A stretch of DNA of 64,000 nt from Candidatus Omnitrophota bacterium (GCA_028716965.1 JAQUOV010000004.1:8377-72376), one strand, 5' to 3'; shown: positions 18,172 through 58,157, numbered from the stretch's first letter. Notes: generated from the sequence alone by a model not told the origin. Numbers and translations are program-made.

Positions 18172-18252
18172 ATGAACCCCTCGCCTTCTGTAAATTTAAC
18201 TATTGAAGCCATGGGGTTTAATGAGCTGACTAAGGAAGAAGGTGCGGGATGA
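18172..18252 (+). repeat. Family A junction element, short copy (glyA / dCMP deaminase)
   Basis: ATGAACCCCTCGCCTTC...GAAGGTGCGGGATGA; supplies the start codon of the next gene. Confidence 0.9.
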
Positions 18253-18710
18253 AAAAGAGCAGAACTATACATAAGCGCCCTACGTGGGATGAATATTTCC
18301 TGGAGATGGCAGGCTTGGTTGCCAAAAGGTCAACCTGCCTGCGCCGCTCTGTTGGTGCGGTATTGGTAAGAGAAAAAAGAATTTTGGCTACCGGTTATAA
18401 CGGCGCTCCCAGCGGTTTGAAGCACTGTGTTGAAATCGGCTGTATACGCCAGCAGTTAAAGATACCTTCCGGAGAACGCCATGAATTATGCCGCGCCTTA
18501 CATGCAGAGCAGAACGCGCTTATCCAGGCCTGCCTGCACGGCATAAGCGTAAAAGGCGCAACTTTATATGCCACTAATCAGCCGTGCGTTATCTGCGCCA
18601 AGATGCTCATTAACGCCGGGATAAGGGAGATCGTAATTGCCGAAGGCTACCCGGACAAAATGGCGATGAGCTTCTTAAGGCAGGCAAAGATAAGAATAAG
18701 GAAAATATGA
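18249..18710 (+). CDS. dCMP deaminase / ComEB family
   Basis: [35 protein letters not shown]. Confidence 0.93.
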
Positions 18711-19009
18711 ACCCCGCACCTTCTTTAAATTCAATAATGTACCATGCGTATCTTCTTAAAAGTAAAAAGAATGATACTTTTTATATTGGATATACAAATA
18801 ATATTGAAAGAAGGTTAAAAGATCATAGCTCCGGGATAGTTGAATATGCAGGGAAATATGTGCCTTGGGAAATAGTGTATTATGAAAGCTCTATTTCCTT
18901 GGTTGATGCTAATCAAAGGGAGAGATCTCTTAAATCTTTTGGGAGGGCATATTCAGGTTTAAAACTTAGAATTAAAAATAGCTTGAATAAGAAAGAAGGT
19001 GCGGGGTGA
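18707..19009 (+). mobile_element. Family A full-length element: GIY-YIG gene bounded by 16-bp perfect inverted repeats
   Basis: ACCCCGCACCTTCTTT (18711-18726) / AAAGAAGGTGCGGGGT (18992-19007); same termini as five gene-less copies. Confidence 0.8.
18737..19009 (+). CDS. Small GIY-YIG nuclease (UPF0213/YhbQ-like)
   Basis: YHAYLL...FYIGYTNNIERRLKDH...PWEIVYYE...ANQRERSLK; the start may instead be ATG 18707. Confidence 0.9.
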   Translation: MYHAYLLKSKKNDTFYIGYTNNIERRLKDHSSGIVEYAGKYVPWEIVYYESSISLVDANQRERSLKSFGRAYSGLKLRIKNSLNKKEGAG

Positions 19010-19473
19010 AGTGTCCGTTTTGCGGATATAAAGAGGATAAGGTCGTGGACTCCCGCGCTACAGCCGAAGAATCGGCAGTCAGGCGCAGAAGGGAATGCCT
19101 GAAATGCGGCAAGCGTTTCACTACTTATGAGTATGTTGAAGAGGTCTCTTTGTTAGTGATCAAGAAAGACGGCCGCAGGGAGGCCTTTGACCGTAAAAAG
19201 ATCTTAGCCGGTATAATCCGCGCCTGCGAAAAGCGTCCGGTGAGCGTGGAAAAGATGGAAGGGGTAGTTGTCCAGGTTGAGCATGCCATCCAGAAGAAAA
19301 GTGACCGCGAGGTTTTGTCCAGCAGGATAGGGGAGCTGGTTATGGAGAAGCTTAAGCAGATTGATGATGTTGCTTATGTGCGCTTTGCCTCGGTCTATAG
19401 GCAGTTTAAGGACGTGGGGCAGTTTATGGTGGAGTTGAGGGATATTTTGGGCAAAGATAAGAAGAAGAAATAG
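19006..19473 (+). CDS. nrdR: Transcriptional repressor NrdR
   Basis: KCPFC..DKVVDSR..RRRRECLKCGKRFTTYE, ATP-cone, VAYVRFASVY. Confidence 0.97.
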   Translation: MKCPFCGYKEDKVVDSRATAEESAVRRRRECLKCGKRFTTYEYVEEVSLLVIKKDGRREAFDRKKILAGIIRACEKRPVSVEKMEGVVVQVEHAIQKKSDREVLSSRIGELVMEKLKQIDDVAYVRFASVYRQFKDVGQFMVELRDILGKDKKKK

Positions 19474-19476
19474 GCG

Positions 19477-19547
19477 GTTAGCGGGTCCTGGCGAGGCTTG
19501 TTTTCGCCGCGCACCGCGACTCAAATCAAGCCTCGCCACCCGCTAAC
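19477..19547. repeat. Family D palindromic repeat, copy 2
   Basis: GTTAGCGGGT...ACCCGCTAAC; core shared with 7894-7974. Confidence 0.85.
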
Positions 19548-19587
19548 TATATTTCTTGTCTTTCCCTAAAACATAGAGGAGCCGGTA

Positions 19588-20001: not shown

Positions 20002-20028
20002 AATACCCCACCTTAAATCTTAACGCTT

Positions 20029-23969: not shown

Positions 23970-24001
23970 TTAGAAAAGAGAGGGGTAGCATCCGGGTATA
24001 A

Positions 24002-25578: not shown

Positions 25579-25584
25579 CCAAAA

Positions 25585-26319: not shown

Positions 26320-26320
26320 A

Positions 26321-26737: not shown

Positions 26738-26745
26738 TTTGCGGC

Positions 26746-29864: not shown

Positions 29865-30073
29865 GCTTTCCGTCTTTCGCTTCGGCACGAAGATTTTCGC
29901 TGTGTGCTTCGGTTTACGTCTCGTTTCGGCAGCGCAGGTTCCTTACGCAATAAGGCATTGCCTGCACTCGCCGTAAAGCCTTGCACACTTTTGCCGAAAA
30001 TCTTCTCATTGTGCCTCCAGCAAAAGACGGAAATCTCATGGCGAGAAACAAGCCAAGGCAGCTCCGATAGCTA
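29865..30073. repeat. Family C long-hairpin repeat, copy 1
   Basis: TTTCCGTCTTT..GGCAC.GAAGATTTTCG..GTGTGC / GCACAC..CGAAAATCTTC..GTGCC..AAAAGACGGAAA; paralogous to 54182-54391. Confidence 0.88.
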
Positions 30074-34731: not shown

Positions 34732-36732
34732 ATGTCTAAAAATCTGGTTATCGTAGAGTCGCCTACCAAGGCTAAAACCATAAGCAAGATCCTGGGCCAG
34801 GATTTTAGCGTGGTTTCCTCCATGGGGCATATTATTGACCTGCCGCAGAAAGAATTGGGCGTAGATGTAGATAATAATTTCAAGCCGGAATATGTGATTA
34901 TCCCGGCCAGAAAGAAATTGTTGACCCAGCTTAGAAAAGAGGCCAAGTCAAAAGAGAAGATATATGTGGCAACCGACCCTGACCGGGAGGGTGAGGCAAT
35001 CGGCTGGCAGATAAAAGAAAAGGTCTTTAAGGGCAAGGATGTCCTGCGGGTAAGTTTTCATGAGATTACCCCGCATGCGGTAGGGGAGGCCTTTAAATCC
35101 GCACGTGAGTTTGACGCCAATATGATTGAGGCCCAGGTCGGCCGCAGGGTGCTGGACCGTATCGTCGGATATTTCTTGAGCCCTTTACTTTGGAAAAAAC
35201 TTGCCCGCGGTTTAAGCGCAGGGCGCGTGCAATCCGTAGCCTTAAGGCTGATCGTGGAACGGGAACGCCAGATCCAGGCCTTTACCGCCAGCGAATATTG
35301 GGAGATTATCGCGGAGTTATTTAAGCCTAAGGTCTTCGGGGAGAGTAGTTTTTGCGCTAAACTTGAAAAGATAGACGGTGAAAAAGCGCAGATTAAGACC
35401 CAGGATGAAGCGCAAGCGATCGTAGAGCAGCTTAAGGAAAAAGAGTTTAAGGTCCTGGAGGTTAAGCAAACAGAAAAGAAACGCTATGCCCCGGCTCCAT
35501 TTATCACCAGCACTATGCAGCAGGAGGCCTTTAATAAGCTTAAGTTTAATGCCTCCAAAACCATGATGGTGGCGCAGCAGCTTTACGAGGGTATTGATAT
35601 CGGCGGGGATAACCCCCTGGGCTTGATTACTTATATGCGTACGGATTCTCCGAATACCGCTCCGGAGGCAGTTGCCGAAGTGCGTGAGCATATCGGCAGG
35701 GTCTTCGGCAAGGATTTTGTCCCGGAGAAACCGAATTTTTTCAAGGCTAAAAAATCAGCGCAGCAGGCGCATGAAGCGATCCGGCCAAGCTATGTTTCGC
35801 GTTCTCCGGAAAGCATGAAAGATTTCTTAAGCCACGACCAGTTTCGTTTATATGAGCTCATTTATAACCGTTTCCTGGCCAGCCAGATGAAACCCGCTGA
35901 ATTCCTGGCTACTTCGGTAGATATCTGCGCGGATAAATATTTGTTTGCGGCTAACGGAAGCCATTTGCTTTTTGAGGGGTTCCTGGCTGCTTACAACAGG
36001 ACCGAAGAGGAGGAAAAGGATGACGAGGAGGAGAAAGAAAAAAACAAGAATGTGGTCCCTCCTTTAGAACAAGGAGAGGTTCTCGGTCTGACTAAGCTTG
36101 TGCCCTCCCAACATTTTACCAAGCCGCCTCCGAGGTTTTCGGACAGCTCTTTAGTCAAGGCCCTGGAAGAGGACGGGATCGGCCGGCCTTCAACCTACGC
36201 GCCGATTATTTACACGCTCATTCTGCGCGATTATGTGCGCAGGATTAAAGGCTATCTTAACCCCACGGAGCTTGGTTTCAAGGTCAGCGATATGCTGGTA
36301 GAATATTTCCCGAAGATTATAGATGTCAAGTTTACCGCGCTTATGGAGGATGAGCTGGATGAGATTGAAGAAGGCAGGCTTAAGCGCGTGGAGGTATTAA
36401 AAGAATTCTACGCCCCTTTTAAAGAGAGCCTGGATTTTGCCCAGGCGAATATAAAGAAGGAGGTTATTACTACCGATCAGATTTGCGATAAATGCGGCAA
36501 GCCTTTTATCATAAAGTGGGGCCGGCGCGGTAAATTCCTGAGTTGTTCGGGTTTTCCCTCCTGCAAGAATTCCAGGTCTATTACTTCCGGTGTCAAATGC
36601 CCGGAAGAAAATTGCGGCGGGGAATTGATCGAGCGCAGGTCAAAGCGCGGTTTTTTCTATGGTTGTTCAAACTTTCCGAAATGCACCTTTACCTCGCGTA
36701 CGTTGCCGCAGGATAAGGAAGATACGCAATGA
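34732..36732 (+). CDS. topA: DNA topoisomerase I
   Basis: LVIVESPTKAK, ATDPDREGE, SAGRVQS, ITYMRTD, GIGRPSTYA, C-terminal zinc ribbons. Confidence 0.98.
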   Translation: MSKNLVIVESPTKAKTISKILGQDFSVVSSMGHIIDLPQKELGVDVDNNFKPEYVIIPARKKLLTQLRKEAKSKEKIYVATDPDREGEAIGWQIKEKVFKGKDVLRVSFHEITPHAVGEAFKSAREFDANMIEAQVGRRVLDRIVGYFLSPLLWKKLARGLSAGRVQSVALRLIVERERQIQAFTASEYWEIIAELFKPKVFGESSFCAKLEKIDGEKAQIKTQDEAQAIVEQLKEKEFKVLEVKQTEKKRYAPAPFITSTMQQEAFNKLKFNASKTMMVAQQLYEGIDIGGDNPLGLITYMRTDSPNTAPEAVAEVREHIGRVFGKDFVPEKPNFFKAKKSAQQAHEAIRPSYVSRSPESMKDFLSHDQFRLYELIYNRFLASQMKPAEFLATSVDICADKYLFAANGSHLLFEGFLAAYNRTEEEEKDDEEEKEKNKNVVPPLEQGEVLGLTKLVPSQHFTKPPPRFSDSSLVKALEEDGIGRPSTYAPIIYTLILRDYVRRIKGYLNPTELGFKVSDMLVEYFPKIIDVKFTALMEDELDEIEEGRLKRVEVLKEFYAPFKESLDFAQANIKKEVITTDQICDKCGKPFIIKWGRRGKFLSCSGFPSCKNSRSITSGVKCPEENCGGELIERRSKRGFFYGCSNFPKCTFTSRTLPQDKEDTQ

Positions 36733-36942
36733 ACCTTGTAAATTTCTCGCTCAAGCCGATTTTTTAACGCCAATGTTCTTTCATATTCCGGCGGTTGCAG
36801 AACTTACGGTATTTGCTCTGGCAAATACCACTCAAACAGCTTCGCCGTCCCCGTTTTGTCGCTTCGCTCCACGGGGATTCCCGGAATACTGAAAGCTCCA
36901 TTGGCTAAAATCGACATTCGCTCGAAATTTACCAGGTTCATT
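36728..36942. repeat. Family B 215-bp long-hairpin repeat, copy 2
   Basis: AATGAACCTTGTAAATTTC...GAAATTTACCAGGTTCATT; overlaps the topA stop codon; paralogue of 10398-10612. Confidence 0.9.
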
Positions 36943-45797: not shown

Positions 45798-47715
45798 GGC
45801 CGCAAGCCTCCTTACTTCTTTTCTGCCTTTAAATGTGAGCCTGTTTTTTGGCAGGAGGCTGGGGGACCTTATTTATTTCTTTGATGCCCGGCACCGCGGG
45901 ATCGCCTGCGCCAATATCAGGAGGGCCATAGTAATGAATAATGACTTCCTGCAGGCCCGCAAGATAACACGCAGGGCTTATCAGTCTTTTGGCCAGAACC
46001 TTATAGAGATTTCTTTTATCCCGCGCATAAATAAAAAATATCTTGATAAATTCATCCATATTGAAAACAGGCAGTATATTGATGAAGCCTTTAAAAGGGG
46101 CAAAGGGGTAATCTTTCTGGCTGCCCATGAAGGTAATTGGGAGCTTTCTAATATTATCTGTGCCAACCTGGGTTTTTCGTTTATCCTGTTTGTCCGCGAC
46201 CAGGGTTTCGTGCGGCTAAACGCCCTGCTTAATTCTTACCGGCTTAAGCAGGGCGCAAAGATTATCCATAAAAAAACCGGGCTGCGCCAGTTGATTGATG
46301 TGCTTGAAAGCAACCAATCCATAGGCATGACCGTTGACCAGGGGGGCAAGCACGGAGAGGTAGTGAATTTCTTTGGCAAATCCGCCTCGATGTCTACCGG
46401 TGCGGTGAAGCTGGCCCTGAAACATGACTGTTCCATAATCCCTGTTTTTTATACGCGCATAAAAGGGCCTCATACTAAAGTTATCCTGGATCAGGTTTAT
46501 ACGGTAAGCAAAAGCGGGGACCTGCAAAGGGACCTGCGCGATAACCTGGAGAGGCTGGTCAATATTTACGAGAAATATATCCGGCAATACCCCCACGAGT
46601 ATCTCTGGACTTATAAAATTTGGAAGTATGGCAAAGAAAAAGATATCCTCATTCTTTCCGACGGTAAGGCCGGGCACCTGCGCCAGTCTGAAAGCGTAGC
46701 TAAGTTAGCCAGCCGGAAATCAGCTGCCCGGGGGGTAAAGACTACTTTGTCTATTTGCGAAGTGAAATTCCGCACCAGCCTGCGCAGGTTTATATTCAGC
46801 CGGATGGTTGTACTATGCGGCAGGCATCAATACCATCTCTGCCTGCGTTATCTGCGCTATGCGCTGGAGGCAGCAAGCTGGCAGAGTTTGATCGGTTTCA
46901 AGCCCGATATTGTTATTTCCGCAGGGGGTAAATTGAGCGGGGTAAATTATATGCTGGCTAAAATAAACCAGGCTAAATCAATTGTCCTGATGCGTCCGGC
47001 AGCCCTAAACCCAAAGGGATTTGACCTGGCAATTATTCCCGAACACGATATGCCGCAGGGCCGTGGTTTGGCTTTCAGGAAAAATATAGTACTAACCGAA
47101 GGGGCGCTTAATTTGGTGGATGCGGATTATCTAAGAGAAAGGTCAGAGAGGCTGCAGCAGTCAGGTTTTTTGAAAGGGCCTTTGTTGAAACCCTGTATCG
47201 GAGTTTTGATCGGCGGCAATAGCAGGAAGTTTTCAATTACCCGGCAGGCGATAATAGAACTGGCAGGTCAAATCAAGGGGGCTGCTGAAAAGCTTGATGC
47301 GGATATCCTCTTATCCACCTCGCGCCGTACGCCGCCTGAAATAGAACAGCTGCTTAAAAATGAATTTGAAGCTTATCCGCGCTGCAGGCTTTTAATTATT
47401 GCCAATGAAAGAAATCATCCTGATGCCGTAGGCGGCATACTGGGGTTAAGCAGGGTAATTGTCAGTTCGCCGGAGAGCATCTCCATGATCTCCGAAGCGG
47501 TGGCGGCAGAAAGATATGTTATCGTATTTATGGCCTCCGGCCTTAGTATGAAGCATCGGCGTTTCTTGAAAAGTTTTCAGGACAAGAGGTATATATATAT
47601 AAAACAGGCTGGAGAGTTGTTTAGCTCCATTGAAGAGATATGGCAAAACCGTCCTGAGCTTAACTTTTCTGCGGATAACTCAAGGGTAAGCGCAGCTTTA
47701 GATAAAATACTATGA
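45751..47715 (+). CDS. Lipid A lauroyl/myristoyl acyltransferase (LpxL-like) fused to an ELM1/GtrOC1-like putative glycosyltransferase domain
   Basis: AHEGNWE, VDQ, YLWTYKIWK; then LSDGKAGHLRQS, FDLAIIPEHD, LIGG, TSRRTP, ESISMISEA. Confidence 0.85.
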   Translation: MKQNLIADYLSCFLFRAASLLTSFLPLNVSLFFGRRLGDLIYFFDARHRGIACANIRRAIVMNNDFLQARKITRRAYQSFGQNLIEISFIPRINKKYLDKFIHIENRQYIDEAFKRGKGVIFLAAHEGNWELSNIICANLGFSFILFVRDQGFVRLNALLNSYRLKQGAKIIHKKTGLRQLIDVLESNQSIGMTVDQGGKHGEVVNFFGKSASMSTGAVKLALKHDCSIIPVFYTRIKGPHTKVILDQVYTVSKSGDLQRDLRDNLERLVNIYEKYIRQYPHEYLWTYKIWKYGKEKDILILSDGKAGHLRQSESVAKLASRKSAARGVKTTLSICEVKFRTSLRRFIFSRMVVLCGRHQYHLCLRYLRYALEAASWQSLIGFKPDIVISAGGKLSGVNYMLAKINQAKSIVLMRPAALNPKGFDLAIIPEHDMPQGRGLAFRKNIVLTEGALNLVDADYLRERSERLQQSGFLKGPLLKPCIGVLIGGNSRKFSITRQAIIELAGQIKGAAEKLDADILLSTSRRTPPEIEQLLKNEFEAYPRCRLLIIANERNHPDAVGGILGLSRVIVSSPESISMISEAVAAERYVIVFMASGLSMKHRRFLKSFQDKRYIYIKQAGELFSSIEEIWQNRPELNFSADNSRVSAALDKIL

Positions 47716-47792
47716 ACCTCGCACCTTCTAAGTATCCGACTATTAAAGGTATGAGGTTGAATGGATTTATTAAAGAGGAAGGTGCGGGGTGA
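47712..47792 (+). repeat. Family A junction element, short copy
   Basis: ATGAACCTCGCACCTTC...GAAGGTGCGGGGTGA; overlaps the upstream TGA and the downstream GTG. Confidence 0.92.
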
Positions 47793-49882
47793 AGATACTG
47801 CAGATATTACCGGAGCTTAATGTGGGGGGAGTTGAGACCGGGACCCTGGATTTATCTAAATACCTTGTGCGCCTTGGGCATAAGGTAGTAGTGGTTTCTG
47901 CCGGCGGAAAACTGGTGGAAGAACTTCAGGCATGCGGCGCCAGGCATTACACTCTGGCAGTGCATAAGAAATCAATCTTTTCTATATTTAAATTGGTCCC
48001 AGTATTGGCGCAGATCATTAAACAGGAAGAGATTGATATCGTGCATGCCCGTTCGCGCGTACCGGCATGGATTGCTTATTTTGCCTGCCGCAGGACGCGG
48101 GCCGTATTTGTAACTACCTGCCACGGTTATTATAAAAAACATTTTTTCAGCCTGGTAATGGGCTGGGCCAAGAGGGTGATTGTTTTAAGCAATGTGATCG
48201 CCCGGCACATGATTGATGATTTCGCAGTGCCGCATGAGCGCATCAGGCTTATCCCGCGCAGCGTGGATTTAGAGAGGTTTAAATACCTTGACCCCAAGCT
48301 GAAAAGAAAAGATGAATTTAACGTGGGGATCATCGGCAGGATTACTCCTTTAAAAGGCCACTTGCATTTTATTAAAGCTATGGCGCGCATCTCCAGGATC
48401 GTCCCCCGTTTAAAGATCTGGATAGTCGGCGATGCCCCGGCGTCAAAAGAGGCGTATAAGGAAGAGGTGCAGGTGTTGGTGCGCCGGCTCGGGCTCTGGC
48501 ATTGCACAGAATTTTTGGGCACGCAGCGGGATATCCCGGGGATATTGGCGCATTTAGACCTTGTAGTTCTGGCTACTACAACCCATGAAGCATTCGGCAG
48601 GGTGATCGTTGAGGCCCAGGCTTCCGGCGTGCCGGTAGTAGCTACCAAAGTAGGCGGGGTAATCGATATTATTGAGGATGGGAAAAACGGGCTGTTAGTG
48701 CCTCCTGCCGACCACAAAAGTATGGCGGATGCCGTATTACGTATTTTTGAAGATACGCAGTTAGCTCAGAACCTGGCTGAAAATGCCTATATAAAGATTA
48801 AAGAAAAGTATACCGTAGAGTTGATGGTTAAAAATACCCTGGATGTTTACCGTGAAGCATTAAGCAATTTTAAGCTCCTGATAATCAAATTCAGTTCCCT
48901 GGGGGATATAATCCTATCCACGGCGGCATTAAGGGCAATATGGCAGAAGTTTTCCAAAAGCAATTACAAGATAAGTTTCCTGACCGGGGAGGAATCAAAA
49001 GAGGTGCTCTTAAGGAGCCCTTACATTGACGAGCTTTTGGTATGCGACCTGAAGAATAACGATAAAGGGCTAAAAGGTCTATGGGGTATCGGCAGTGTAT
49101 TAAGAAAAAAGCATTTTGATATGGTCATCGACCTGCAGAATAACCGGGCCAGCCATATACTTTCTTATTTAAGCGGCTGTATTAATTGCTACGGTTATGA
49201 CAACGGGAAGTTTTCCTTTTTGCTCCAGCACCGCATTAAAGACGAGAAGCCTCCTATTGACCCGGTAACGCACCAGTTCAGGATATTGAAGATGCTTGGT
49301 ATTGACCTTTTGGATAATGCGCTTGAGCTCTGGCCTTCTTCCGAAGACGTAAAACATATAGAGGAGCTTTTGAATGCCCAATGGTTAAGCCAGGCGCAGA
49401 AAATAGTAGGTATTAATATCAGCGCTTCCAAGAGATGGAGTACTAAGCTTTGGCCGCACCAGTACCTGGTGCGGCTTTGCGAGGAGCTGGGTATGCGCGA
49501 TATCCGCGTGGTAATCACCGGCACGGCCCAGGATTTAGGTGATGCAGAGCTGCTCGTAAACTCTCTTAAGGGCGCAAAGGTTATTAATGCCTGCGGGAAA
49601 ACCACTGTTAATGAGCTGGCGGTTTTAATTAAAAAATGCCATGTATTTATTTCAGCTGATTCTTCCCCTTTGCATATAGCATCGGCGGTGGGGACACCTT
49701 TTATCGCGCTCTTTGGCCCGACTGACGCCAGGCGGCATCTGCCTCCCGGCAAGGACCGCATTGTGATGAATAAGGATTTAAACTGCAGTCCTTGTTATAA
49801 AACTAAGTGCCGCTCTATGCGCTGTATGAAAGGTATTGCTCCGGATGAGGTGCTATCGGCGGTGGAAAAGTTGCTCAGATGA
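47789..49882 (+). CDS. GT4 glycosyltransferase - GT9 heptosyltransferase fusion
   Basis: GGVETGT, HARSRVPAW, EAFGRVIVEA; then SSLGDII, DLQ, DSSPLHIA, LFGPT. Confidence 0.9.
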   Translation: MKILQILPELNVGGVETGTLDLSKYLVRLGHKVVVVSAGGKLVEELQACGARHYTLAVHKKSIFSIFKLVPVLAQIIKQEEIDIVHARSRVPAWIAYFACRRTRAVFVTTCHGYYKKHFFSLVMGWAKRVIVLSNVIARHMIDDFAVPHERIRLIPRSVDLERFKYLDPKLKRKDEFNVGIIGRITPLKGHLHFIKAMARISRIVPRLKIWIVGDAPASKEAYKEEVQVLVRRLGLWHCTEFLGTQRDIPGILAHLDLVVLATTTHEAFGRVIVEAQASGVPVVATKVGGVIDIIEDGKNGLLVPPADHKSMADAVLRIFEDTQLAQNLAENAYIKIKEKYTVELMVKNTLDVYREALSNFKLLIIKFSSLGDIILSTAALRAIWQKFSKSNYKISFLTGEESKEVLLRSPYIDELLVCDLKNNDKGLKGLWGIGSVLRKKHFDMVIDLQNNRASHILSYLSGCINCYGYDNGKFSFLLQHRIKDEKPPIDPVTHQFRILKMLGIDLLDNALELWPSSEDVKHIEELLNAQWLSQAQKIVGINISASKRWSTKLWPHQYLVRLCEELGMRDIRVVITGTAQDLGDAELLVNSLKGAKVINACGKTTVNELAVLIKKCHVFISADSSPLHIASAVGTPFIALFGPTDARRHLPPGKDRIVMNKDLNCSPCYKTKCRSMRCMKGIAPDEVLSAVEKLLR

Positions 49883-49956
49883 ACCCCGTATCTTCTCTAT
49901 TTAACTATTGAAGCCCATACGGGTTAAAGAATTGGTTAAGAATGAAGGTGCGATGA
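49879..49956 (+). repeat. Family A junction element, short copy
   Basis: ATGAACCCCGTATCTTC...GAAGGTGCGATGA. Confidence 0.88.
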
Positions 49957-51053
49957 ATATATTATTTATAGCTAATCATCTTAATATAGGCGGCATATCC
50001 AGTTACCTGTATGCCTTGGCAGGCGGGTTAAGGGAGGATGGGCATAATGTTTATGTTGCTTCCAGCTCCGGCGAGCTTTTGGAAGACTTTGCGTCAGCGG
50101 GTATAAAACATATAACAATTCCGATAAGCACGAAAAAAGAGGTTAGCCCGAAAATTATAATTAGCTTCTTAAAACTCAAAAAAGAGATCAAAAGATATAA
50201 TATTGATTTGCTGCATTCAAACAGCCGGACTACCCAGGTTTTAGGAAGCCTGTTGAGCCGTTATACGGGGAAGCCACATATCTTTACCTGCCACGGTTTT
50301 TTTAAGCCGAGATTCTCGCGCAGGCTTTTTCCCTGCTGGGGCAAGGCCATGATCGCAATAAGCCGAGAGGTAAAGGAGCATTTGATCTCTGATTTCAAGC
50401 TGGATAATGAGAGGATAAACGTAATCAATAATGGCATAGACCTGCAAAGATTTGGCGATTTCTCCGCCCGGCAAAAACTAAGGGAGGGTTTAGGCATAGG
50501 AAACATTCTTTTGGTCGGTATTGTTGCCCGTTTATCCGATGTCAAAGGGCATACCTACCTGCTTAAAGCTATGCGGTCCGTTATAAAGAGTTTCCCTTTG
50601 GTTAAGCTGCTTATCGTAGGCGAAGGGAAAATGAGGGATATACTGGTAAAGGAAACCGAAGATTTAGGTATTAAAGATAATGTTTTATTTTTGCCGCAAG
50701 CAGGAGGCAGGGAAAATGTGCTTGCGGCAATGGATGTTTTTGTCATGCCGTCATTGCAGGAAGGATTAGGTCTGGCACTTATGGAGGCGATGGCACAGGG
50801 GTTGGCAGTTGTGGGCTCGGCAGTAGGGGGAATAAAGAGTTTGATTAAAGACGGTTATAACGGGCTGCTGGTTGAGCCAGCTTGCCCCGAAGCTTTGGCG
50901 CAGGCAATCATGCGCCTGCTTGGCGATGAGCGGATGCGCAATGTTTTAGGCTCCAACGCGCGCAGGTTCATCACCGATAATTTCTCAAAGAAGAAAATGG
51001 TTGATGCGACAGAAAAGGTCTACGAAAAATGTTTAGAGAAAACGGGTAATTAA
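49953..51053 (+). CDS. GT4 family glycosyltransferase
   Basis: GGISSY, NGID, KGH, EGLGLALMEAMA; start at ATG 49953. Confidence 0.92.
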   Translation: MNILFIANHLNIGGISSYLYALAGGLREDGHNVYVASSSGELLEDFASAGIKHITIPISTKKEVSPKIIISFLKLKKEIKRYNIDLLHSNSRTTQVLGSLLSRYTGKPHIFTCHGFFKPRFSRRLFPCWGKAMIAISREVKEHLISDFKLDNERINVINNGIDLQRFGDFSARQKLREGLGIGNILLVGIVARLSDVKGHTYLLKAMRSVIKSFPLVKLLIVGEGKMRDILVKETEDLGIKDNVLFLPQAGGRENVLAAMDVFVMPSLQEGLGLALMEAMAQGLAVVGSAVGGIKSLIKDGYNGLLVEPACPEALAQAIMRLLGDERMRNVLGSNARRFITDNFSKKKMVDATEKVYEKCLEKTGN

Positions 51054-51081
51054 TGTTTATTCTCCGGGGGTATAAGCGTAA

Positions 51082-52119
51082 ATGAGCAAGGTTAAGCAGG
51101 CAGAACGTATCCTTATTTTTAATGTTAACTGGCTGGGGGATGTTTTGTTTTCTACCGCCACCATCAGGAATGTGCGCAGGAATTACCCCGAAAGCTATAT
51201 CGCCTGCGTGATCCCCAGCCGTTGTTACCCGATATTAAAAGGCAATCCGCATCTAGATGAAGTGATTATCTTTGATGAAAAAGACAGGCATAAGGGGATG
51301 CTTGCCAAGCTCAATTTTATCAGGCTGCTGAAGAGCAAGAAATTTGATACTGTATTCCTGTTGCACCGTTCATTCAGCCGGGCTCTCATTTGCCGATTGG
51401 CCGGCATAGGGCAGAGGATCGGCTATCATACCAAAAAACGTTCTTTCCTCCTTACCCGCAGGATTGTTATGCCGAAACAGGATTCCCTACACCGCATAGA
51501 TTTTTACCTGAATGTTATTGAAAAGGCGGGGCTGCGCGTAGAAGACAGGTACCTGGATTTTTCTTTTACCCCCGAAGAAGAAAAATATGTGGATGATTTT
51601 TTAAGCCGGAACTCTGTGCATCAAGATGATCTCCTGGTTGTGCTTAACCCCGGGGGAAATTGGATCCCCAAGCGTTGGCCCAGGGATTATTGGGCGCTCC
51701 TGGCGGATAAATTAATCAGCGAAATAAAAGCGAAAGTGGTCATCACCGGCAGCATCTCTGATTTGCCATTGGTTAACCAGATAAAAGAAAAAATGAGAGA
51801 GAAGCCTTTAGTCTCCTGCGGAGTTTTTAATATAAAACACCTGGGTGCGCTGGCCAGGAGGGCGGATATGTTTATTACCGCCGATACCGGCCCGATGCAT
51901 ATCGCCAATGCCGTGGGGGCTAAAAAGGTGATAGCGATTTTCGGGCCGACGGCCAAAGAGATTACCGGCCCCTATCCGGATACGAATGTGGTTATTTTAC
52001 AGAAAGATACCGGCTGCCTGATACCGTGTTATAGGGTAAATTGCCGGAATAACCGTTGCATGAAAGCGGTTACTCCCGATGATGTCTTGGCGCAAATCAG
52101 GAAGATCAGGAAGAGATGA
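51082..52119 (+). CDS. waaF: LPS heptosyltransferase II-like (GT9)
   Basis: NWLGDVLFST, KRWP, DTGPMHIA, IFGPT. Confidence 0.8.
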   Translation: MSKVKQAERILIFNVNWLGDVLFSTATIRNVRRNYPESYIACVIPSRCYPILKGNPHLDEVIIFDEKDRHKGMLAKLNFIRLLKSKKFDTVFLLHRSFSRALICRLAGIGQRIGYHTKKRSFLLTRRIVMPKQDSLHRIDFYLNVIEKAGLRVEDRYLDFSFTPEEEKYVDDFLSRNSVHQDDLLVVLNPGGNWIPKRWPRDYWALLADKLISEIKAKVVITGSISDLPLVNQIKEKMREKPLVSCGVFNIKHLGALARRADMFITADTGPMHIANAVGAKKVIAIFGPTAKEITGPYPDTNVVILQKDTGCLIPCYRVNCRNNRCMKAVTPDDVLAQIRKIRKR

Positions 52120-54131
52120 AGATACTTTTCGTGACTTTAAGCAATATAGGCGACTGCATTTTGACCCTTCCGGTTTTAGATGCCTTGCGCAACGAATACC
52201 CTCAGGCCCTGATCAGCTGTCTTGTGCCTGAACGGCCTAAGGAAATTTTCATCAACAATCCCGCCGTAGAAAAGATAATCGTTTTTGATAAGCGTTCCAG
52301 CCTGGCGGATAAGATAAAATTGTTCCTTTCTCTGAGCAGGGAAAGGTTTGATATAGTCATTGATTTACGAAACAGCTTTTTCGGGGCCTTCCTGCCGGCT
52401 AAAAAAAGGAGTTCGCCGCTGCGCTTCATTCCGGGCAAGTTCAGGCATATGAAAGATAAGCATCTGTTCTGGGCGGGTTTTGCCGGTTATCCTATGAGGG
52501 ATAAAAAACAGCAATCTTTGGTTATTGCCCCCGAAGATGTTGCTTATATTGAGAAGATTTTGAATAGCCGCGGGCTGACTGACAGCGCTAAATTGATCGT
52601 GGTTTCTCCCGGAGCAAGGAGCCAGGTCAAACGCTGGGATAAGCATAATTTCAGCCTGCTTTGCAGTCGGCTTATAAAAGAAGGCTGGGATATCGCCCTG
52701 GCAGGGGATAAGAGCGATGAGCCTGTATGTGAATATGTTTTTCATGCGGCTCCGGAAAAAATACTCAATCTTTGTTCTAAAACTTCAATCAGCCAACTGG
52801 CTGCCTTGTTAAAAAAATCACGCCTTCTTGTTACTAACGACAGCGCGGTAATGCATTTGGCCAGCTATTTAAATGTCCCGGTTGCTTCAATATTCGGGCC
52901 TACTGATGAAAACAAATACGGTCCCTGGTCGCAGAAGAAACTAATTATAAAAAAAGACATCTTCTGCCGGCCGTGCGAAAAAGCCCAGTGCCGTTTTGCT
53001 ACTCTGGCATGTTTATCTTGCCTGAAGGTTGATGATGTGCTTGGGCAGATAAAGGGTTTGCTTAAGGGTGCGGAAAATCCGGATACCGGCAATACCCGCC
53101 AAAGCTATAGGCGTATCCTGGTTGTGCGCACTGACCGCATAGGCGATGTGCTGTTGTCTACGCCGGTAATTAAAGCTTTAAGGGATAAGTATCCCCAGGC
53201 TTACATTTCCATGATCGTGGCCCCTTATGCGCGGGATATTGTGGAGGGCAACCCGTATCTGGATGAAATTATAATTTATGATAAGGATAACAAACATAAA
53301 GGTTGGCTGCATTCACTTAAATTTGCCCGCAAATTAAGAAAAAAGAGATTTGATTTAGCGGTGATATTACATCCTACCAACCGCATGCATCTGCTGCTTT
53401 TTCTTACCGGGATCCCCAAGCGGTTAGGTTATAAACGCAAATTTGGTTTTTTGAATAATCCGGCAAAAGCCCATCTAAAACAGGAAGGCCTAAAGCATGA
53501 ATCAGAATATAACCTGGATTTAGTGCGCGATTTAGGCATAAGCGGCAATCCGCAGGACCTCTTCATGCCTGTAAGGCAGGAATCAGAGCAGTGGGTCAAT
53601 GATTTATTCTCCGGGTGCGGGATCAAAGAGGCGGATAAATTGCTGGCGATTAATCCCGGCGCAAGCTGTCCCTCAAAGATCTGGCCGGCGGCTAACTTTG
53701 CGCAGGTTGCCGAAATATTAGCCAGGCGGCATAGTTTTAAAATCCTGATTGTCTCCGGGCCCAAGGATACTTTGCTTGCAAACATGATCGCTAATAAAAT
53801 CGGTGAGCAGGCGGTAAACCTGTCCGGCAAGACCTCGGTAAGCCACCTGGCCAGTGTCCTTAAAAGGTGCGTTTTATTTATTTCTAATGATTCCGGGCCG
53901 GTTCATATTGCGTCAAGTTTAGGGGTGCCGGTTGTTTCTATTTTTGGGCGTAACCAGCCCGGGCTTAGCCCGCGGCGCTGGGGGCCGTTAGGCAGGAAGG
54001 ATAAATACCTGCATAAAGACGTAGGCTGCATCCAATGCCTGGCGCATAACTGTAAAAAGGAGTTTGCCTGCCTTAAGGCAATCAGCGTTGAGGATGTGCT
54101 TGCTGCCGTCGAATCCATACTCAAAGGTTAA
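52116..54131 (+). CDS. Tandem double GT9 heptosyltransferase
   Basis: Two modules: SNIGDCIL..NDSAVMH..FGPT and DRIGDVLL..NDSGPVH..IFG. Confidence 0.9.
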   Translation: MKILFVTLSNIGDCILTLPVLDALRNEYPQALISCLVPERPKEIFINNPAVEKIIVFDKRSSLADKIKLFLSLSRERFDIVIDLRNSFFGAFLPAKKRSSPLRFIPGKFRHMKDKHLFWAGFAGYPMRDKKQQSLVIAPEDVAYIEKILNSRGLTDSAKLIVVSPGARSQVKRWDKHNFSLLCSRLIKEGWDIALAGDKSDEPVCEYVFHAAPEKILNLCSKTSISQLAALLKKSRLLVTNDSAVMHLASYLNVPVASIFGPTDENKYGPWSQKKLIIKKDIFCRPCEKAQCRFATLACLSCLKVDDVLGQIKGLLKGAENPDTGNTRQSYRRILVVRTDRIGDVLLSTPVIKALRDKYPQAYISMIVAPYARDIVEGNPYLDEIIIYDKDNKHKGWLHSLKFARKLRKKRFDLAVILHPTNRMHLLLFLTGIPKRLGYKRKFGFLNNPAKAHLKQEGLKHESEYNLDLVRDLGISGNPQDLFMPVRQESEQWVNDLFSGCGIKEADKLLAINPGASCPSKIWPAANFAQVAEILARRHSFKILIVSGPKDTLLANMIANKIGEQAVNLSGKTSVSHLASVLKRCVLFISNDSGPVHIASSLGVPVVSIFGRNQPGLSPRRWGPLGRKDKYLHKDVGCIQCLAHNCKKEFACLKAISVEDVLAAVESILKG

Positions 54132-54181
54132 TTGATATTTTGTTCTTCGAGATATTGTTCGCATGCGAAAATTTCGCCGTG

Positions 54182-54391
54182 CGCTAAGCTTTCCGTCTTT
54201 TGTTTCGGCACGAAGATTTTCGCCGTGTGCTTTAAGTTTACGTCTCGCTGCGGCTGCAGTATACTTACGCTGGTAAGATTCTGCCTTCGCTCGACGTAAT
54301 TCCTCGCACACTTTTGCCGAAAATCTTCTAATTGTGCCTTAAGCAAAAGCCGTAAATCTTAGCGAGAGGCAAGTCTCGGCAAACCCGCTAA
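54182..54391. repeat. Family C long-hairpin repeat, copy 2
   Basis: CGCTAAGCTTTCCGTCTTTTG...CAAAAGCCGTAAATCTTAGCG; paralogue of 29865-30073. Confidence 0.88.
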
Positions 54392-54426
54392 ATTGAATAA
54401 ATATCCATTTGCTTTGGGATTAAATT

Positions 54427-55374
54427 GTGCTAAAATCATTGTCTATGATTGATCCAAAGAAGGTAAAAAGGTATTCTATCAAAACACGCTTCAGTAAGGT
54501 GAATGAGAAGGATTTTGCACTTAAGCCGGCTAAACTTAAGAGCTTCCGCGCCTTCTTAGATTCCTTGCCGGATATCCTTAAAGCCAGGGATTTGCGCGCC
54601 CTTTCTGCGGATGTCGCCTCGGCAGCCAGGAAGAAGAAGGCGGTGATTTTGATGGCCGGCGCGCACGTGATTAAGTGCGGGCTTAACCCGGTGTTAATAG
54701 AGCTGATGAGAAAGAAGGTAATCAGCTGTATCTGCCTTAACGGCGCCGGGATCATCCATGATTTTGAGATTGCCTTTCAGGGCAAAACATCCGAAGACGT
54801 TGCCGAAAACCTTAAAAACGGCAGTTTCGGCATGGGCAAGGAAACCGCGGATTTTATTAATCAGGCGGTTAAAGACGGGGTGAGCGAAGGCTTAGGCCTG
54901 GGCAGTTCCGTGGGAAAGATGATCTCCGATGAGAAATTGGCGTATAAGGATTTGAGCCTGCTTTATAACGCTTATAAATATAATCTGCCGGTATGCGTTT
55001 TCGTGGGGATCGGTACGGATATCATCCATCAGCATCCTTCATTTGACGCCGGTTTAACCGCCGAAGGCTCGTTGCGCGATTTCCACACTCTCGTCGAGAA
55101 GATAAGCTCGTTAAACAAAGGGGGAGTGGTTTTAAATTTTGGTTCAGCGGTGCTTTTACCCGAAGTATTCTTAAAAGCGCTTAACCTGGCGCGAAACCTC
55201 GGGAATAAAGTCAAGGATTTTACTACCGCCAACTTTGATATGATTTATCATTACCGGCCGGCGCAGAATGTGGTGAACCGTCCTACTCATTCAGGAGGCA
55301 GGGGCTATTACATTATCGGCCATCACGAGATAATGCTGCCGCTTTTAGCGCAGGCGGTCATCGAAAAAATATGA
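54427..55374 (+). CDS. Conserved protein with a deoxyhypusine-synthase-like fold, in the LPS locus
   Basis: GAHVIKCGL, NGAGIIHDFE, TSEDV, GTDIIHQHP, GSAVLLPEVFLKA, GHHEIMLPL. Confidence 0.7.
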   Translation: MLKSLSMIDPKKVKRYSIKTRFSKVNEKDFALKPAKLKSFRAFLDSLPDILKARDLRALSADVASAARKKKAVILMAGAHVIKCGLNPVLIELMRKKVISCICLNGAGIIHDFEIAFQGKTSEDVAENLKNGSFGMGKETADFINQAVKDGVSEGLGLGSSVGKMISDEKLAYKDLSLLYNAYKYNLPVCVFVGIGTDIIHQHPSFDAGLTAEGSLRDFHTLVEKISSLNKGGVVLNFGSAVLLPEVFLKALNLARNLGNKVKDFTTANFDMIYHYRPAQNVVNRPTHSGGRGYYIIGHHEIMLPLLAQAVIEKI

Positions 55375-55451
55375 ACCCCGCACCTTTTTTAATTTAGTTA
55401 TTATAAGGTGCAGGGGTTAGAATTCATGAATAAAGAGAAGGTGCGGGGTGA
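55371..55451 (+). repeat. Family A junction element, short copy
   Basis: ATGAACCCCGCACCTT...GAAGGTGCGGGGTGA. Confidence 0.92.
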
Positions 55452-56464
55452 AGAACCTAAAAAAGATAATCGCAAAGTTCAATCAGGCAAAGATCTTAGT
55501 TGCCGGCGATCTGATTCTTGATCAGCATATTTGGGGCAATGTTGAAAGAATCTCTCCGGAGGCGCCTGTACCGATTGTCCGCGCCAATAGAAGGAATTAT
55601 GTCCCCGGAGGCGCAGCCAATGTCGCTAACAATATTAGCGCTTTCGGCGCCAAAGTCAGCCTATGCGGGGTATTGGGTGACAGCAAAGACCCGGCTACAG
55701 AAAAGTTTCAGCTTGAGGCTAAGAAACTGGGCATTGATACTAAAGGTGTATTTTTTGAAGAGGGCAGGAAAACAACCCTCAAGACCAGGATTATTGCCGG
55801 CCATCAGCAGGTAGTAAGAGTTGATTGGGAAGATGTGCATAATGTCTCCAGGCATATAAAAGATAAGCTTATTAAATACCTTGTTGATAATATAAGAAAA
55901 TTTGACGCTGTTATTATTGAGGATTATGGAAAGGGGCTTCTTGACCGGCAATTGACGAGGCATATTATTAAAACAGCCAGAGATTTTAAGAAGATAGTAA
56001 CCGTTGATCCGAAAGAGAATAATTTTGATTGCTATAAGCAGGCTACCTGTATTACCCCTAACCGAAAAGAAACCCAGAACGCCATTAGGTATCTTAAGAT
56101 GAATGACCGGGGGAATTTGTTCAGGATTTACAAAGAGGACCTGCTTATGGACGGTGATATTATAAAAGCGGGAGAGGAAATATTGGAGTATTTGCAATTA
56201 GAGAGCCTTTTGATTACGCTTGGCGAAGGCGGCATGTGGCTTTTTGAGAAGGGGCAGAATAAACCTATTCCGACCGTAGCACAGGAGGTTTTTGATGTAT
56301 CAGGCGCAGGGGATACGGTAATCAGCAGTTTTACCCTGGCGCTTTGTGCCGGCGCTTCAAAACTGGAGGCTGCGCATATCGCTAATTTCGCCGCAGGAAT
56401 TGTAGTGGGTAAATTGGGTACTGCTGTAACAAATTGCCGGGAACTTTTAGAGAGGATTAAATAA
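55448..56464 (+). CDS. rfaE1: D-glycero-beta-D-manno-heptose-7-phosphate kinase (HldE/RfaE domain I)
   Basis: RISPEAPVP, GGAANVA, DYGKG, TPN, DVSGAGDTV. Confidence 0.92.
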   Translation: MKNLKKIIAKFNQAKILVAGDLILDQHIWGNVERISPEAPVPIVRANRRNYVPGGAANVANNISAFGAKVSLCGVLGDSKDPATEKFQLEAKKLGIDTKGVFFEEGRKTTLKTRIIAGHQQVVRVDWEDVHNVSRHIKDKLIKYLVDNIRKFDAVIIEDYGKGLLDRQLTRHIIKTARDFKKIVTVDPKENNFDCYKQATCITPNRKETQNAIRYLKMNDRGNLFRIYKEDLLMDGDIIKAGEEILEYLQLESLLITLGEGGMWLFEKGQNKPIPTVAQEVFDVSGAGDTVISSFTLALCAGASKLEAAHIANFAAGIVVGKLGTAVTNCRELLERIK

Positions 56465-56465
56465 A

Positions 56466-57206
56466 ATGGATGTAATCGCAGTTATACCGGCCAGGTATTC
56501 ATCTACCAGGTTTAAAGCCAAAGTGCTGGCTGATATCATGGGTAAGCCCATGTTGCAGCATGTATGGGAACGGGCTAAGGCAAGCCGCATATTGGATGAT
56601 TTGATTATTGCCTGTGATGATGAGATAATCCGCAAGGCAGCTGTGAAGTTCGGGGCTAAAACCGTGATGACCTCAAAAGAGCATACCTGCGGCACTGACA
56701 GGATAAGCGAGGTGGTCAACCCCCTGGATGTAAAGGTTGTTATAAATATACAAGGGGATGAACCGTTGATCCATCCGATGATGATCGATAATGTCGCGCG
56801 GGCATTATTAGAAGACAGCTCATTGAGCATGGCGACGATTATGAAGAGGATTGAAGACCCCGCGCAGGTTGCCGATCCGAACGTGGTAAAGGTAGTGGTG
56901 GACAAGAACGGCCTTGCCTTGTATTTCTCGCGTGCCCCTATTCCTTATCTGGCAGAGAACGCAGAGGTAAAAGATGCACTTTATTACAAACATATCGGGC
57001 TTTACGGTTATACCAAGGATTTCCTTTTTACTTATAAAAACCTGCCTGTTTCCAATCTTGAGAAGGCCGAGAAACTGGAGCAGCTGCGCGTATTGGCGGA
57101 AGGATTTAAAATTAAAGTGATCGAGACTAAATTTGATACCATAAGCGTGGATACTCCGGAGGACCTGGAGAAGGTGAAAGAATTATTGCAAAAGGGGATA
57201 AGCTGA
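56466..57206 (+). CDS. kdsB: CMP-Kdo synthetase
   Basis: IPARYSSTRF, GTDR, NIQGDEP, HIGLYGY, LEQLR. Confidence 0.96.
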   Translation: MDVIAVIPARYSSTRFKAKVLADIMGKPMLQHVWERAKASRILDDLIIACDDEIIRKAAVKFGAKTVMTSKEHTCGTDRISEVVNPLDVKVVINIQGDEPLIHPMMIDNVARALLEDSSLSMATIMKRIEDPAQVADPNVVKVVVDKNGLALYFSRAPIPYLAENAEVKDALYYKHIGLYGYTKDFLFTYKNLPVSNLEKAEKLEQLRVLAEGFKIKVIETKFDTISVDTPEDLEKVKELLQKGIS

Positions 57207-58018
57207 TGCATGAGGTTAGCGCGGGGAATATAAAATTCGGGGCCGGCAATCCGCTCGTGCTTATTGCCGGGCCTTGTGTTATTGAGTCGGAAAGCTCATG
57301 CCTTAAGGCTGCCGGAAGGATTAAGGCGATCGTTTCTTCCTGCGGGGTCCCGTTTGTTTTTAAATCCAGCTTTGATAAGGCCAACCGGCTTTCCGGAGAT
57401 TCTTACCGCGGCCCGGGCCTAAGCAAGGGTTTGGTTATTTTGAAAAAAGTAAAGCAGCAGTTAAAGGTCCCTGTTTTAAGCGATGTGCACTGCGCAAAGG
57501 ATATGCCTGCGGCCGCTGAAGTGCTGGATATTATCCAGATACCGGCTTTTTTGTGCCGTCAGACGGATATTGTATTGGCAGCCGCAAAAACCGGCAAGGT
57601 GGTCAATATAAAGAAAGGCCAGTTCCTTGCGCCCTGGGATATTTTACCCATCATCAAAAAGGTGGAATCCGCCGGGAATAAGAAGATATTGATTACGGAA
57701 AGAGGGGTAAGTTTTGGTTATAATAACCTGGTTACGGATTACCGCAGCCTTTCGATTATGCGTAATTTCGGGTATCCGGTAATTTACGATGCTACCCACA
57801 GCGTGCAGCTTCCCGGCGGGAAAGGCACCTGTTCAGGCGGGCAAAGCGAATTTGTTGCGGGGTTATCCAGGGCAGCCGTAGCTTTCGGCTGCGACGGGCT
57901 GTTCCTTGAGGTGCATGTTGACCCTAAAAGCGCGCCTTGCGACGGAGCGAACATGATTAATTTCAGCAAGCTGGAAGCCTTATTGAAACAAATCAGAAAG
58001 ATCGAGAGAGCATTATGA
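57206..58018 (+). CDS. kdsA: Kdo-8-phosphate synthase
   Basis: IAGPCVIE, SFDKANR, QIPAFLCRQTD, KKGQF, DATHSVQ. Confidence 0.97.
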   Translation: MHEVSAGNIKFGAGNPLVLIAGPCVIESESSCLKAAGRIKAIVSSCGVPFVFKSSFDKANRLSGDSYRGPGLSKGLVILKKVKQQLKVPVLSDVHCAKDMPAAAEVLDIIQIPAFLCRQTDIVLAAAKTGKVVNIKKGQFLAPWDILPIIKKVESAGNKKILITERGVSFGYNNLVTDYRSLSIMRNFGYPVIYDATHSVQLPGGKGTCSGGQSEFVAGLSRAAVAFGCDGLFLEVHVDPKSAPCDGANMINFSKLEALLKQIRKIERAL

Positions 58019-58157
58019 ACCCCCGCACCTTCTGTAAATTCAAGTATCAGGAGAATACGGCTTAATGATTTAAATAAGAATGAAGGTTCCGGGATAAGTT
58101 GGTTTGAGGTTAAGATTTAAGATTTGAATGAATTCATAGGAGGAAGGTGCTGGGTGA
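58015..58157 (+). repeat. Family A junction element, extended copy with a duplicated right end
   Basis: ATGAACCCCCGCACCTTC..GAAGGTTCCGGG (58082-58093)..GAAGGTGCTGGGTGA (58143-58157). Confidence 0.85.

Follow-up and report, generated by a model that had tools for sequence, protein, structure and literature searches.

Family A, a small inverted-repeat element on co-oriented start codons in Omnitrophota operons, and its candidate GIY-YIG nuclease

Introduction

In the sections of Chenal et al. (2025, Nat Commun 16:2388, PMC11893778) used here, Ssn nucleases are described as cutting single-stranded DNA next to hairpin repeats (SRM/NTS) that flank their genes and fill genomes, and the authors remark that this repeat-gene-repeat layout "is identical to" the architecture of insertion sequences. 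Here we describe repeats denoted family A, found in a stretch of 64,000 nucleotides from a Candidatus Omnitrophota bacterium (GCA_028716965.1 JAQUOV010000004.1:8377-72376), referred to as a whole as the window. The window is C4:8377-72376 of the window genome (G000), which comprises 1.85 Mb in 21 contigs. Family A elements lie on start codons, oriented with the gene that follows, and one window copy encodes a GIY-YIG nuclease. The nearest described system is the Ssn nucleases with their hairpin repeats, with the mycobacterial interspersed repetitive units (MIRUs) as a positional analogue.

According to the same sections, Ssn is a single-domain GIY-YIG protein of ~94-100 residues, which resembles the 100 residues of the family A nuclease, and its gene is likewise flanked by inverted-repeat DNA that is also present as many gene-less copies. 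However, each Ssn flank forms its own hairpin there, whereas the arms of family A pair across the whole element. Family A further differs in its 4-bp target duplication and its one-orientation insertion exactly on start codons, and its open reading frame (ORF) takes both start and stop from the target, with a new Shine-Dalgarno sequence and start codon predicted to be supplied in return. The terms "start codon", "target site duplication", "direct repeat" and "intergenic" are absent from the main text of PMC11893778, and the 12 supplement files covered, of 14, name neither Omnitrophota nor Planctomycetes nor Patescibacteria.

MIRUs (Supply et al. 1997, as given in Delihas 2011, PMC3184786) are 40-100 bp long and lie inside polycistronic operons. 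The passages of PMC3184786 drawn on here also report small ORFs overlapping neighbouring genes, tetranucleotide direct repeats, and empty versus filled sites, a likeness to family A of layout only. In contrast to family A, MIRUs are chiefly known from tandem arrays, and no nuclease or other gene is known to accompany them; nor do the passages drawn on put forward a rule of insertion on start codons that are then rebuilt. The same source, in part, covers bacterial MITEs (miniature inverted-repeat transposable elements) with insertion-sequence parents, such as Correia/NEMIS, which are small and present in many copies, with terminal inverted repeats, a target duplication and a longer coding relative sharing the same ends. 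Family A has terminal inverted repeats, a target duplication with empty sites, and a longer coding element with the same ends, but no parent encoding a recognised transposase: its coding relative is ~300 bp long and specifies a 100-residue nuclease, not a DDE or other known transposase. In addition, its insertion site is functional (a start codon), not a simple short sequence.

The free-standing GIY-YIG homing genes of T4-like phages (seg, I-TevI) are nuclease genes wedged between host genes as selfish DNA, as in family A. In their enzymes the nuclease is joined to DNA-binding domains, and homing proceeds through recombination into a single cognate allele; the genes are without inverted repeats, target duplications and dispersed gene-less copies. 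Unlike these homing endonucleases, the family A nuclease consists of the catalytic domain only (Pfam, 100 residues). The IS200/IS605 and REP/RAYT systems, as treated in parts of PMC11893778 and as generally known, share with family A genome-wide hairpin repeats tied to one small flanked nuclease-type gene, as well as orientation-specific insertion. They use HUH/Y1 transposases and make no target duplication, whereas family A has one. A literature search for start-codon-targeting elements of the GIY-YIG or MITE type yielded, besides the Ssn paper, no relevant work; in the part of PMC12455944 consulted, GIY-YIG is mentioned only in connection with horizontal transfer. The insertion rule reported below is undescribed in the literature searched.

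Results and discussion

Family A elements lie on co-oriented start codons

The window contains six family A copies, all on the + strand: four of 78-81 nt, one of 303 nt, and one 143-nt composite. At the left end, five of them begin ATGA, in which TGA is the stop codon of an upstream ORF with 158-702 open codons; the sixth starts 1 nt past the TAA of glyA. All six end in RTGA, the RTG of which opens an ORF of 153-697 codons, and GAAGG lies 6 nt upstream of each of these new starts. In the right-hand RTGA, the R still belongs to the inverted repeat of the element, being its final base. Orthologous genes in sister genomes have N-termini that match the RTG starts, whereas the longest-ORF starts (TTG at 49908 and 58124) of a mechanical ORF list disagree with them. 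A first-pass annotation of the window had described six same-orientation copies inside operons, these left ends, right ends that start the next gene, and a right arm bringing a Shine-Dalgarno-like GAAGG together with a start codon; each of these descriptions was borne out.

A profile built from the four short window copies was used to search the 1.85-Mb genome and recovered 18 copies. In every one, the RTGA right end opens at least 80 codons and the element is oriented with its genes, and every one also lies at the end of a co-directional upstream ORF. This junction is an ATGA overlap in 11 copies and a TAA or TAG 0-2 nt before the element in five; in the remaining two, an upstream ORF of 366 or 421 codons extends 17 nt into the element and ends there. 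Copies in random orientation or context, which would have spoken against the annotated rule, were not seen among the 18.

Chance expectations were derived from crude gene calls (1446 genes, 93% coding). By these calls, the genome holds 17,834 TGAA sites, of which 1,060 are fully intergenic and 361-526 lie on a start codon. The probability that a TGAA site interrupting no ORF is a co-oriented start is 0.25-0.33, which gives P of about 2e-11 to 2e-9 for 18 out of 18. Furthermore, an upstream stop lies within 5 nt of 16 of the 18 elements, compared with 37% of NTGA starts that have one within 8 nt (P = 7e-6), and ATGA overlaps are found at 11 of 18 compared with 23% (P = 7e-4). This enrichment directly behind upstream stops fits either a need for translational coupling or a targeting preference.

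The sister genomes were scanned with a context-blind pattern of two arm cores 35-60 nt apart, which matched in 16 of 48 genomes of the genus, with 0 to 27 copies per genome. As an independent replicate, 40 of the 52 listed elements of two sister genomes, G044 and G023, were fetched. A start codon followed by a long ORF was found at the right end of all 40 in one orientation and of none in the other. The rule of position and orientation holds in three genomes, and we consider it highly probable that insertion itself takes place on co-oriented start codons.

Right arms also occur alone. Three remnants in the window genome (GAAGGTGCGGGG/A followed by TGA) provide the start of a gene, at C5:108035-108060 (-), C6:81600-81625 (-) and C4:84012-84065. 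The genes behind them are an ORF of 37 codons, which from its sequence we take to be rpmJ, one of 219 codons beginning MKIFIDTANVKEI, and one of 381 codons.

A 4-bp duplication of the target

Comparing empty with filled sites defined the element proper as CCCC...GGGG (CCCCGCACCTTC...GAAGGTGCGGGG), with the same four bases on each side. Duplications were counted in 39 of the 40 elements from G044 and G023, one locus being cut by a contig end. The 4-nt flanks were identical in 34 of the 39, and some left flanks keep just three of the four bases. The right flank was other than TGAA in 11 elements, nine of which had a matching left flank (TGAG five times, TTGA twice, TGAT and TGCG), and the empty relative of the TGAT case reads ATGATAAAG. 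These varied but matching flanks, together with the empty relative, indicate that the duplicated bases come from the target and are no part of the element itself.

The TGCG duplication sits on an ATG-CGT start and the TTGA duplications on TTG starts. The duplication contains TGA in 36 of the 39 elements, compared with 46% of starts in general that are followed by A (P = 8e-10). In one subfamily, T...A replaces C...G at the arm ends, which gives ATG instead of GTG. Tandem elements made up five of the 39 and were inserted at the GTGAA rebuilt by an earlier copy; the same arrangement was seen in a phylum-level relative (L059).

Since the empty glyA|dcd junction reads TAA-N-ATGA, and since duplications of TGCG and TTGA occur, the constant feature is the start codon and not the stop/start overlap. 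The element thus targets the start codon (N|TGAN); tight stop/start junctions are over-represented among its sites, but other starts are used as well. The first-pass annotation had read ATGA...RTGA as a target duplication and the ATGA overlap as the target. The duplication is real and 4 bp long, but the duplicated bases are TGAN, one base to the right of ATGA; overlaps are indeed enriched, but they are not the defining feature. Its expectation that empty sites would be plain stop/start overlaps held at five of the six window sites and failed at glyA|dcd. The interpretation was largely right with these corrections and is partly supported as it was first put.

Window copies and their empty counterparts

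Orthologous junctions were collected from 30 loci of the same genus around each of three genes. Empty junctions were present in sister species for all six window sites, in the form of a plain (A/G)TGA or TAATGA stop/start overlap at five and of a stop-N-ATGA at the sixth.

The sixth is the site of copy 1 (81 nt, 18172..18252, +), which lies between glyA (SHMT) and a dCMP deaminase gene (Pfam), just past the glyA stop. Its TGAA flanks are at 18173-18176 and 18250-18253, its new start is the ATG at 18249, and its mini-ORF of 26 codons is intact. The usual empty form here is TAA-N-ATGAAAAAG, with no overlap. This junction is filled in the window genome and in G044, and a remnant is left in G019.

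The long copy (303 nt, 18707..19009, +) lies between the dCMP deaminase gene and nrdR. Its inverted repeats are perfect over 12 bp (CCCCGCACCTTC at 18712-18723 and GAAGGTGCGGGG at 18995-19006) with TGAA on either side; its ATG overlaps the TGA of the deaminase gene, and its TGA overlaps the nrdR GTG at 19006. The dcd|nrdR junction was a plain overlap (...GTATGAAGTGTCC) in 18 of 30 sister loci and had short spacers in seven; three were filled, one carried another insertion, and one was cut by a contig end. The long form fills this junction in the window genome and G019 and the short form in G017; G020 also has the long form.

Copy 3 (81 nt, 47712..47792, +) follows a lipid A acyltransferase fusion gene and precedes a GT4+GT9 glycosyltransferase gene. 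It has an ATGA overlap at its left, a GTG start at 47789 and an intact mini-ORF, and its site was an empty ATGA overlap in 25 of 30 sister loci. Copy 4 (78 nt, 49879..49956, +), between two glycosyltransferase genes, has a variant left arm (CCCCGTATCTTC), a right end shortened to GAAGGTGCGATGA, a new ATG start at 49953, and an interrupted mini-ORF. Empty forms of its site read RTGAA or TAATGAA. About ten genomes were filled at this site by subfamilies with differing inner arms, for example CCCCGCCCTTTTGGC...GCCAAAAGGGCGGGG in L173 and CCCCGTTACATCTC...GAGATGTAACGGGG in L190. This one junction has received independent insertions from subfamilies whose inner arms differ.

At L173 and L190 (junctions of copies 4 and 3), the outer CCCCG...CGGGG and the TGAA flanks are kept while the inner arms are wholly different yet mutually complementary; the ends have therefore diversified with their pairing preserved.

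Copy 5 (81 nt, 55371..55451, +) lies 5' of a PfkB-family kinase gene, for which it supplies the GTG at 55448. It has three arms, left, middle (AAGGTGCAGGGG, which can pair with the left arm too) and right, and 17 of the 30 sister loci had an empty ATGA overlap at its site. Copy 6, the composite (143 nt, 58015..58157, +), separates kdsA (DAHP_synth_1 family) from a SIS+CBS sugar isomerase gene. Besides its left arm it has two right arms, the inner one decayed (GAAGGTTCCGGG, 58082-58093) and the outer one reading GAAGGTGCTGGG (58143-58154), with a GTG start at 58154, and 21 of 30 sister loci showed an empty ATGA overlap at its site.

Window positions 47000-58500 were also compared with contigs of four public runs, all from one study. 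One metagenome contig joins 58015 to 58155, so that 139 nt are missing exactly at copy 6 and four letters are common to both sides; its shorter side has only 30 letters and the likeness threshold was 90, so that it may derive from a relative. Contigs from two of the runs link copy 5 to copy 3 (55392 to 47771) via nine unrelated letters, which suggests that the repeats cause mis-joins or breaks in short-read assemblies.

The genes flanking the elements match the Pfam families SHMT, dCMP deaminase, NrdR, lipid A acyltransferase fusion, glycosyltransferases, PfkB kinase, KdsB, KdsA and SIS+CBS isomerase. No Rfam family matched anywhere in the window at gathering scores.

The observed positions could have arisen without any targeting of start codons, if insertion took place at TGA-like tetranucleotides nearly anywhere and selection spared only co-oriented starts behind another gene, where the rebuilt start keeps the operon alive. 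At the coding density given by the crude calls, most random insertions would be lethal, and a duplication that varies among TGAA, TGAG, TGAT, TGCG and TTGA cannot alone define a site. A strong stem could also harm untranslated leaders. However, with some 1,060 intergenic TGAA sites against 361-526 on starts, neither any of the 18 copies of the window genome nor any of the 40 replicate elements lies off a start. One junction has been hit repeatedly by different subfamilies, and insertion has recurred at the element's own rebuilt GTGAA. We regard placement by selection alone as unlikely.

The long copy encodes a GIY-YIG nuclease

The 303-nt copy is a single complete ORF of 100 codons for a GIY-YIG nuclease (Pfam PF01541, E = 3.4e-12; residues 11-77) and the only close copy of this gene in the window genome. 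The first-pass annotation had noted neither this gene nor the descent of the short copies from it. Its Pfam matches comprise only the GIY-YIG and T5orf172 nuclease domains, with no second domain and no recognised transposase, and NCBIfam gave nothing above its cut-off and only a sub-threshold match to a group I intron endonuclease. Among solved structures, the UPF0213 proteins 1zg2 and 1ywl come closest, with Slx1 next.

The ATG of the nuclease consists of an A and the TG of the left duplication, i.e., the host start codon, and its TGA is the right duplication. The terminal codons (MNPAPS..., ...EGAG) are the inverted repeats themselves. AAGGA lies 6 nt upstream of the host ATG, and no purine-rich stretch precedes the internal Met11, making translation from host signals the likely route for the long copy.

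Of 48 nuclease homologues found, 45 were aligned. The terminal peptides are mostly kept down to 47% protein identity, and the nuclease ORF and the arms travel together over the same range. Residues Y15, Y26, G28, R36, H40 and E60 are invariant. The ratio of nonsynonymous to synonymous substitution rates (dN/dS) between nuclease copies is 0.08-0.23, by which measure the nuclease is under purifying selection. Family A arms flank homologues in metagenome-assembled genomes (MAGs) of Omnitrophota and in MAGs labelled Planctomycetota, whereas distant homologues from Patescibacteria are without them. Some relatives carry a whole short element on one side. Several of the arm-less distant homologues in Patescibacteria (loci L066-L075) end directly before a tRNA-like gene (GGGGCGGTTAGCTCAGTTGG...).

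Short copies retain the ends of the nuclease gene

The window genome contains ~17 gene-less copies, and short copies measure 74-84 nt. Their likeness to the long copy extends over ~30 nt from the left end and 35-45 nt from the right. The short-copy peptide, MNPAPS...R-F-N-x-L-N-K-K-E-G-A-G, compares with ...R-I-K-N-S-L-N-K-K-E-G-A-G in the long copy. By these shared ends and peptide remnants, the short copies are internal-deletion derivatives of the nuclease gene.

The arms form 8-14 of 14 possible Watson-Crick pairs in 16 copies and pair perfectly in the long copy. In the four short window copies, the predicted RNA arm pairing amounts to -22 to -29 kcal/mol, with z-scores of -2.8 to -4.6 (copy 3, -3.9; copy 5, -4.6), and covers GAAGG. 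The fold of composite copy 6 was no better than shuffles (z-score -0.17). A hairpin formed by the middle arm was set aside as the main structure, as 12 of 14 folded short copies pair the left with the right arm at minimum energy. Among the G044 and G023 units, 29 of 39 have lengths that are multiples of three and 22 of 39 have an open mini-ORF. Selection for the frame of the mini-ORF was rejected as the cause of this pattern: only 8 of the 18 length variants among these units are in frame, and common descent explains the rest.

A model for insertion and mobility

We propose that family A is a mobile element that inserts with a 4-bp duplication on co-oriented starts, is likely mobilised by its Ssn-like GIY-YIG nuclease, and is predicted to leave operon translation working. 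After insertion, the host's ribosome site and ATG would drive the frame of the element (the nuclease, or the 26-codon mini-ORF), which would end at the TGA of the right duplication. The displaced gene would restart at a new codon composed of the last base of the repeat (G or A) and the TG of the duplication, with the GAAGG(TG) of the right arm, 6 nt upstream, as its predicted new Shine-Dalgarno sequence. In that case, as the first-pass annotation proposed, insertion into essential operons would do almost no harm. Since the predicted arm pairing covers GAAGG, the new site would stay hidden until the left arm was opened. A ribosome arriving from upstream, whether terminating or initiating at the left edge, could melt the left arm and couple the two translations. 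The melting of a hidden ribosome site by an upstream ribosome is the classical mechanism of translational coupling. For mobility, cuts by the nuclease would fall at the base of the stem formed by the two arms and at the start codons to be invaded, and host repair or ligation would finish the move.

Mobility driven by the nuclease is somewhat favoured by its long co-travel with the arms, by the lack of any larger element with these arms in the window genome, by the absence of arms near the ten transposase-homologue loci checked, and by the activity of Ssn described above, but a number of observations weigh against it. Transposition is not known for any GIY-YIG enzyme; these are hydrolytic nucleases. 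A 4-bp duplication usually means a staggered double-strand cut, and Ssn enzymes, in the sections of PMC11893778 used here, cut single-stranded DNA only. Copy number and the presence of the nuclease are poorly matched: G023 has 25 short copies and no nuclease homologue at E <= 1e-15, and G044 has 27 short copies while its only close nuclease copy has an internal TAA. The long copy occupies one dcd|nrdR junction in three species and looks inherited, not recently moved. Roughly every second related long copy has its left arm separated from the nuclease or in another reading frame, so that not all of them can borrow the host ATG. Short copies within the window genome have diverged from one another, being 64-81% alike to reference copies over the common ends, and the mini-ORF is open in just 6 of 17 of them. 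Among the length variants of the sister-genome units, frame-keeping (8 of 18) is no commoner than common descent gives. Arm mismatches (16 G.T versus 11 A.C) show no clear strand bias.

The short elements might instead be ordinary MITEs moved in trans by a conventional transposase, located elsewhere or lost from the assemblies, with the GIY-YIG gene as a passenger or homing nuclease in one MITE lineage. Terminal inverted repeats together with a duplication of 4 bp are what DDE transposition classically leaves. The numerous short copies of G023 without a close nuclease gene and the broken nuclease of G044 speak for such a transposase, insertion sequences are often unassembled in MAGs, and Y1_Tnp homologues were present in five of five genomes checked, with DDE_Tnp_1 in G044. 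However, no arm pair more than 303 nt apart, as expected of a larger parent element, was found in the window genome, and ten loci with transposase homologues (of DDE_Tnp_1 and Y1_Tnp, the two families checked) had no family A arms within 1.5 kb. The co-travel of nuclease ORF and arms down to 47% protein identity, and the remnants of the nuclease's own 5' and 3' coding ends in short copies, also count against a mere passenger, and we judge this explanation to be unlikely.

Homologues of Y1_Tnp (IS200/IS605 or RAYT-like) number four in G000 (C3:193843-194178, C1:195431-195769, C1:155828-156172 and C1:267374-267688) and eight in G023. None of six such loci checked had family A arms within 1.5 kb, and these homologues may belong to another hairpin-repeat family of the genome. 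Kinship with IS5 was considered, as the right arm resembles the outer end of IS5, and was set aside since the motif here reads outward and not inward.

It is improbable that family A is a domesticated system in which a host Ssn-type single-strand nuclease acts on the repeats (e.g., limiting recombination or transformation) and the repeats are intercistronic hairpins tuning coupling or mRNA stability: the nuclease does occupy one junction in three species under purifying selection, and Neisseria Ssn and its repeats modulate natural transformation, for which the authors propose a domesticated insertion-sequence-like unit (PMC11893778, in the sections used here), but the presence of family A is patchy (0 to 27 copies over 48 genomes of the genus), the majority of orthologous junctions carry no element, decay and truncation are seen among the copies, and many genomes have repeats without the nuclease.

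If family A is mobilised by its own nuclease, a bolder extension of this proposal is that it could be the smallest self-contained transposon known, which we hold to be possible but doubtful. Such a transposon would have ~295 bp and a single enzyme, an Ssn-type GIY-YIG nuclease of 90-100 residues, and would actively recognise translation starts, maybe through its left arm (CACCTTCT), which resembles an anti-Shine-Dalgarno sequence and could pair, in single-stranded DNA, with the purine-rich ribosome site at the target. It would take the host's ribosome site and ATG and pay back a new Shine-Dalgarno sequence and start codon, and could in this way colonise essential operons of Omnitrophota, Planctomycetota and bacteria of the candidate phyla radiation (CPR).

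Other repeats and a side observation

The window also contains repeats other than family A. Members of a second repeat family lie at 7885-7965 and 19462-19542 (81 nt, 80% alike) and have an internal palindrome (GGCGAGGCTTG...CAAGCCTCGCC); the latter copy begins at the end of nrdR. Further dispersed repeats unrelated to family A, 83-94% alike, are 10398-10597 / 36728-36928, 29865-30045 / 54188-54368, and 10639-10683. In a sister genome (G011:C15:17106-18800), the match to dCMP deaminase is split into residues 1-83 and residues 80-153, with ~1.2 kb between the two parts of a single open frame of 575 codons, which could be an intein or another in-frame insertion.

Implications

Family A sites have practical consequences for genome annotation and assembly. 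Gene callers will mis-set starts at these sites, as the wrong longest-ORF starts at 49908 and 58124 illustrate, and assemblies break or mis-join at the copies. A nuclease and arm pair that target start codons could also serve as a tool. If the nuclease does mobilise the element, family A would found a new class of bacterial transposons, extremely small and relying on a single-strand nuclease of the GIY-YIG type, and would provide a natural role for the recently described Ssn nucleases. The predicted borrowing and replacement of host translation signals would show selfish DNA living at little cost in essential coupled operons, including those for Kdo and lipopolysaccharide (LPS) genes, nrdR and glyA.

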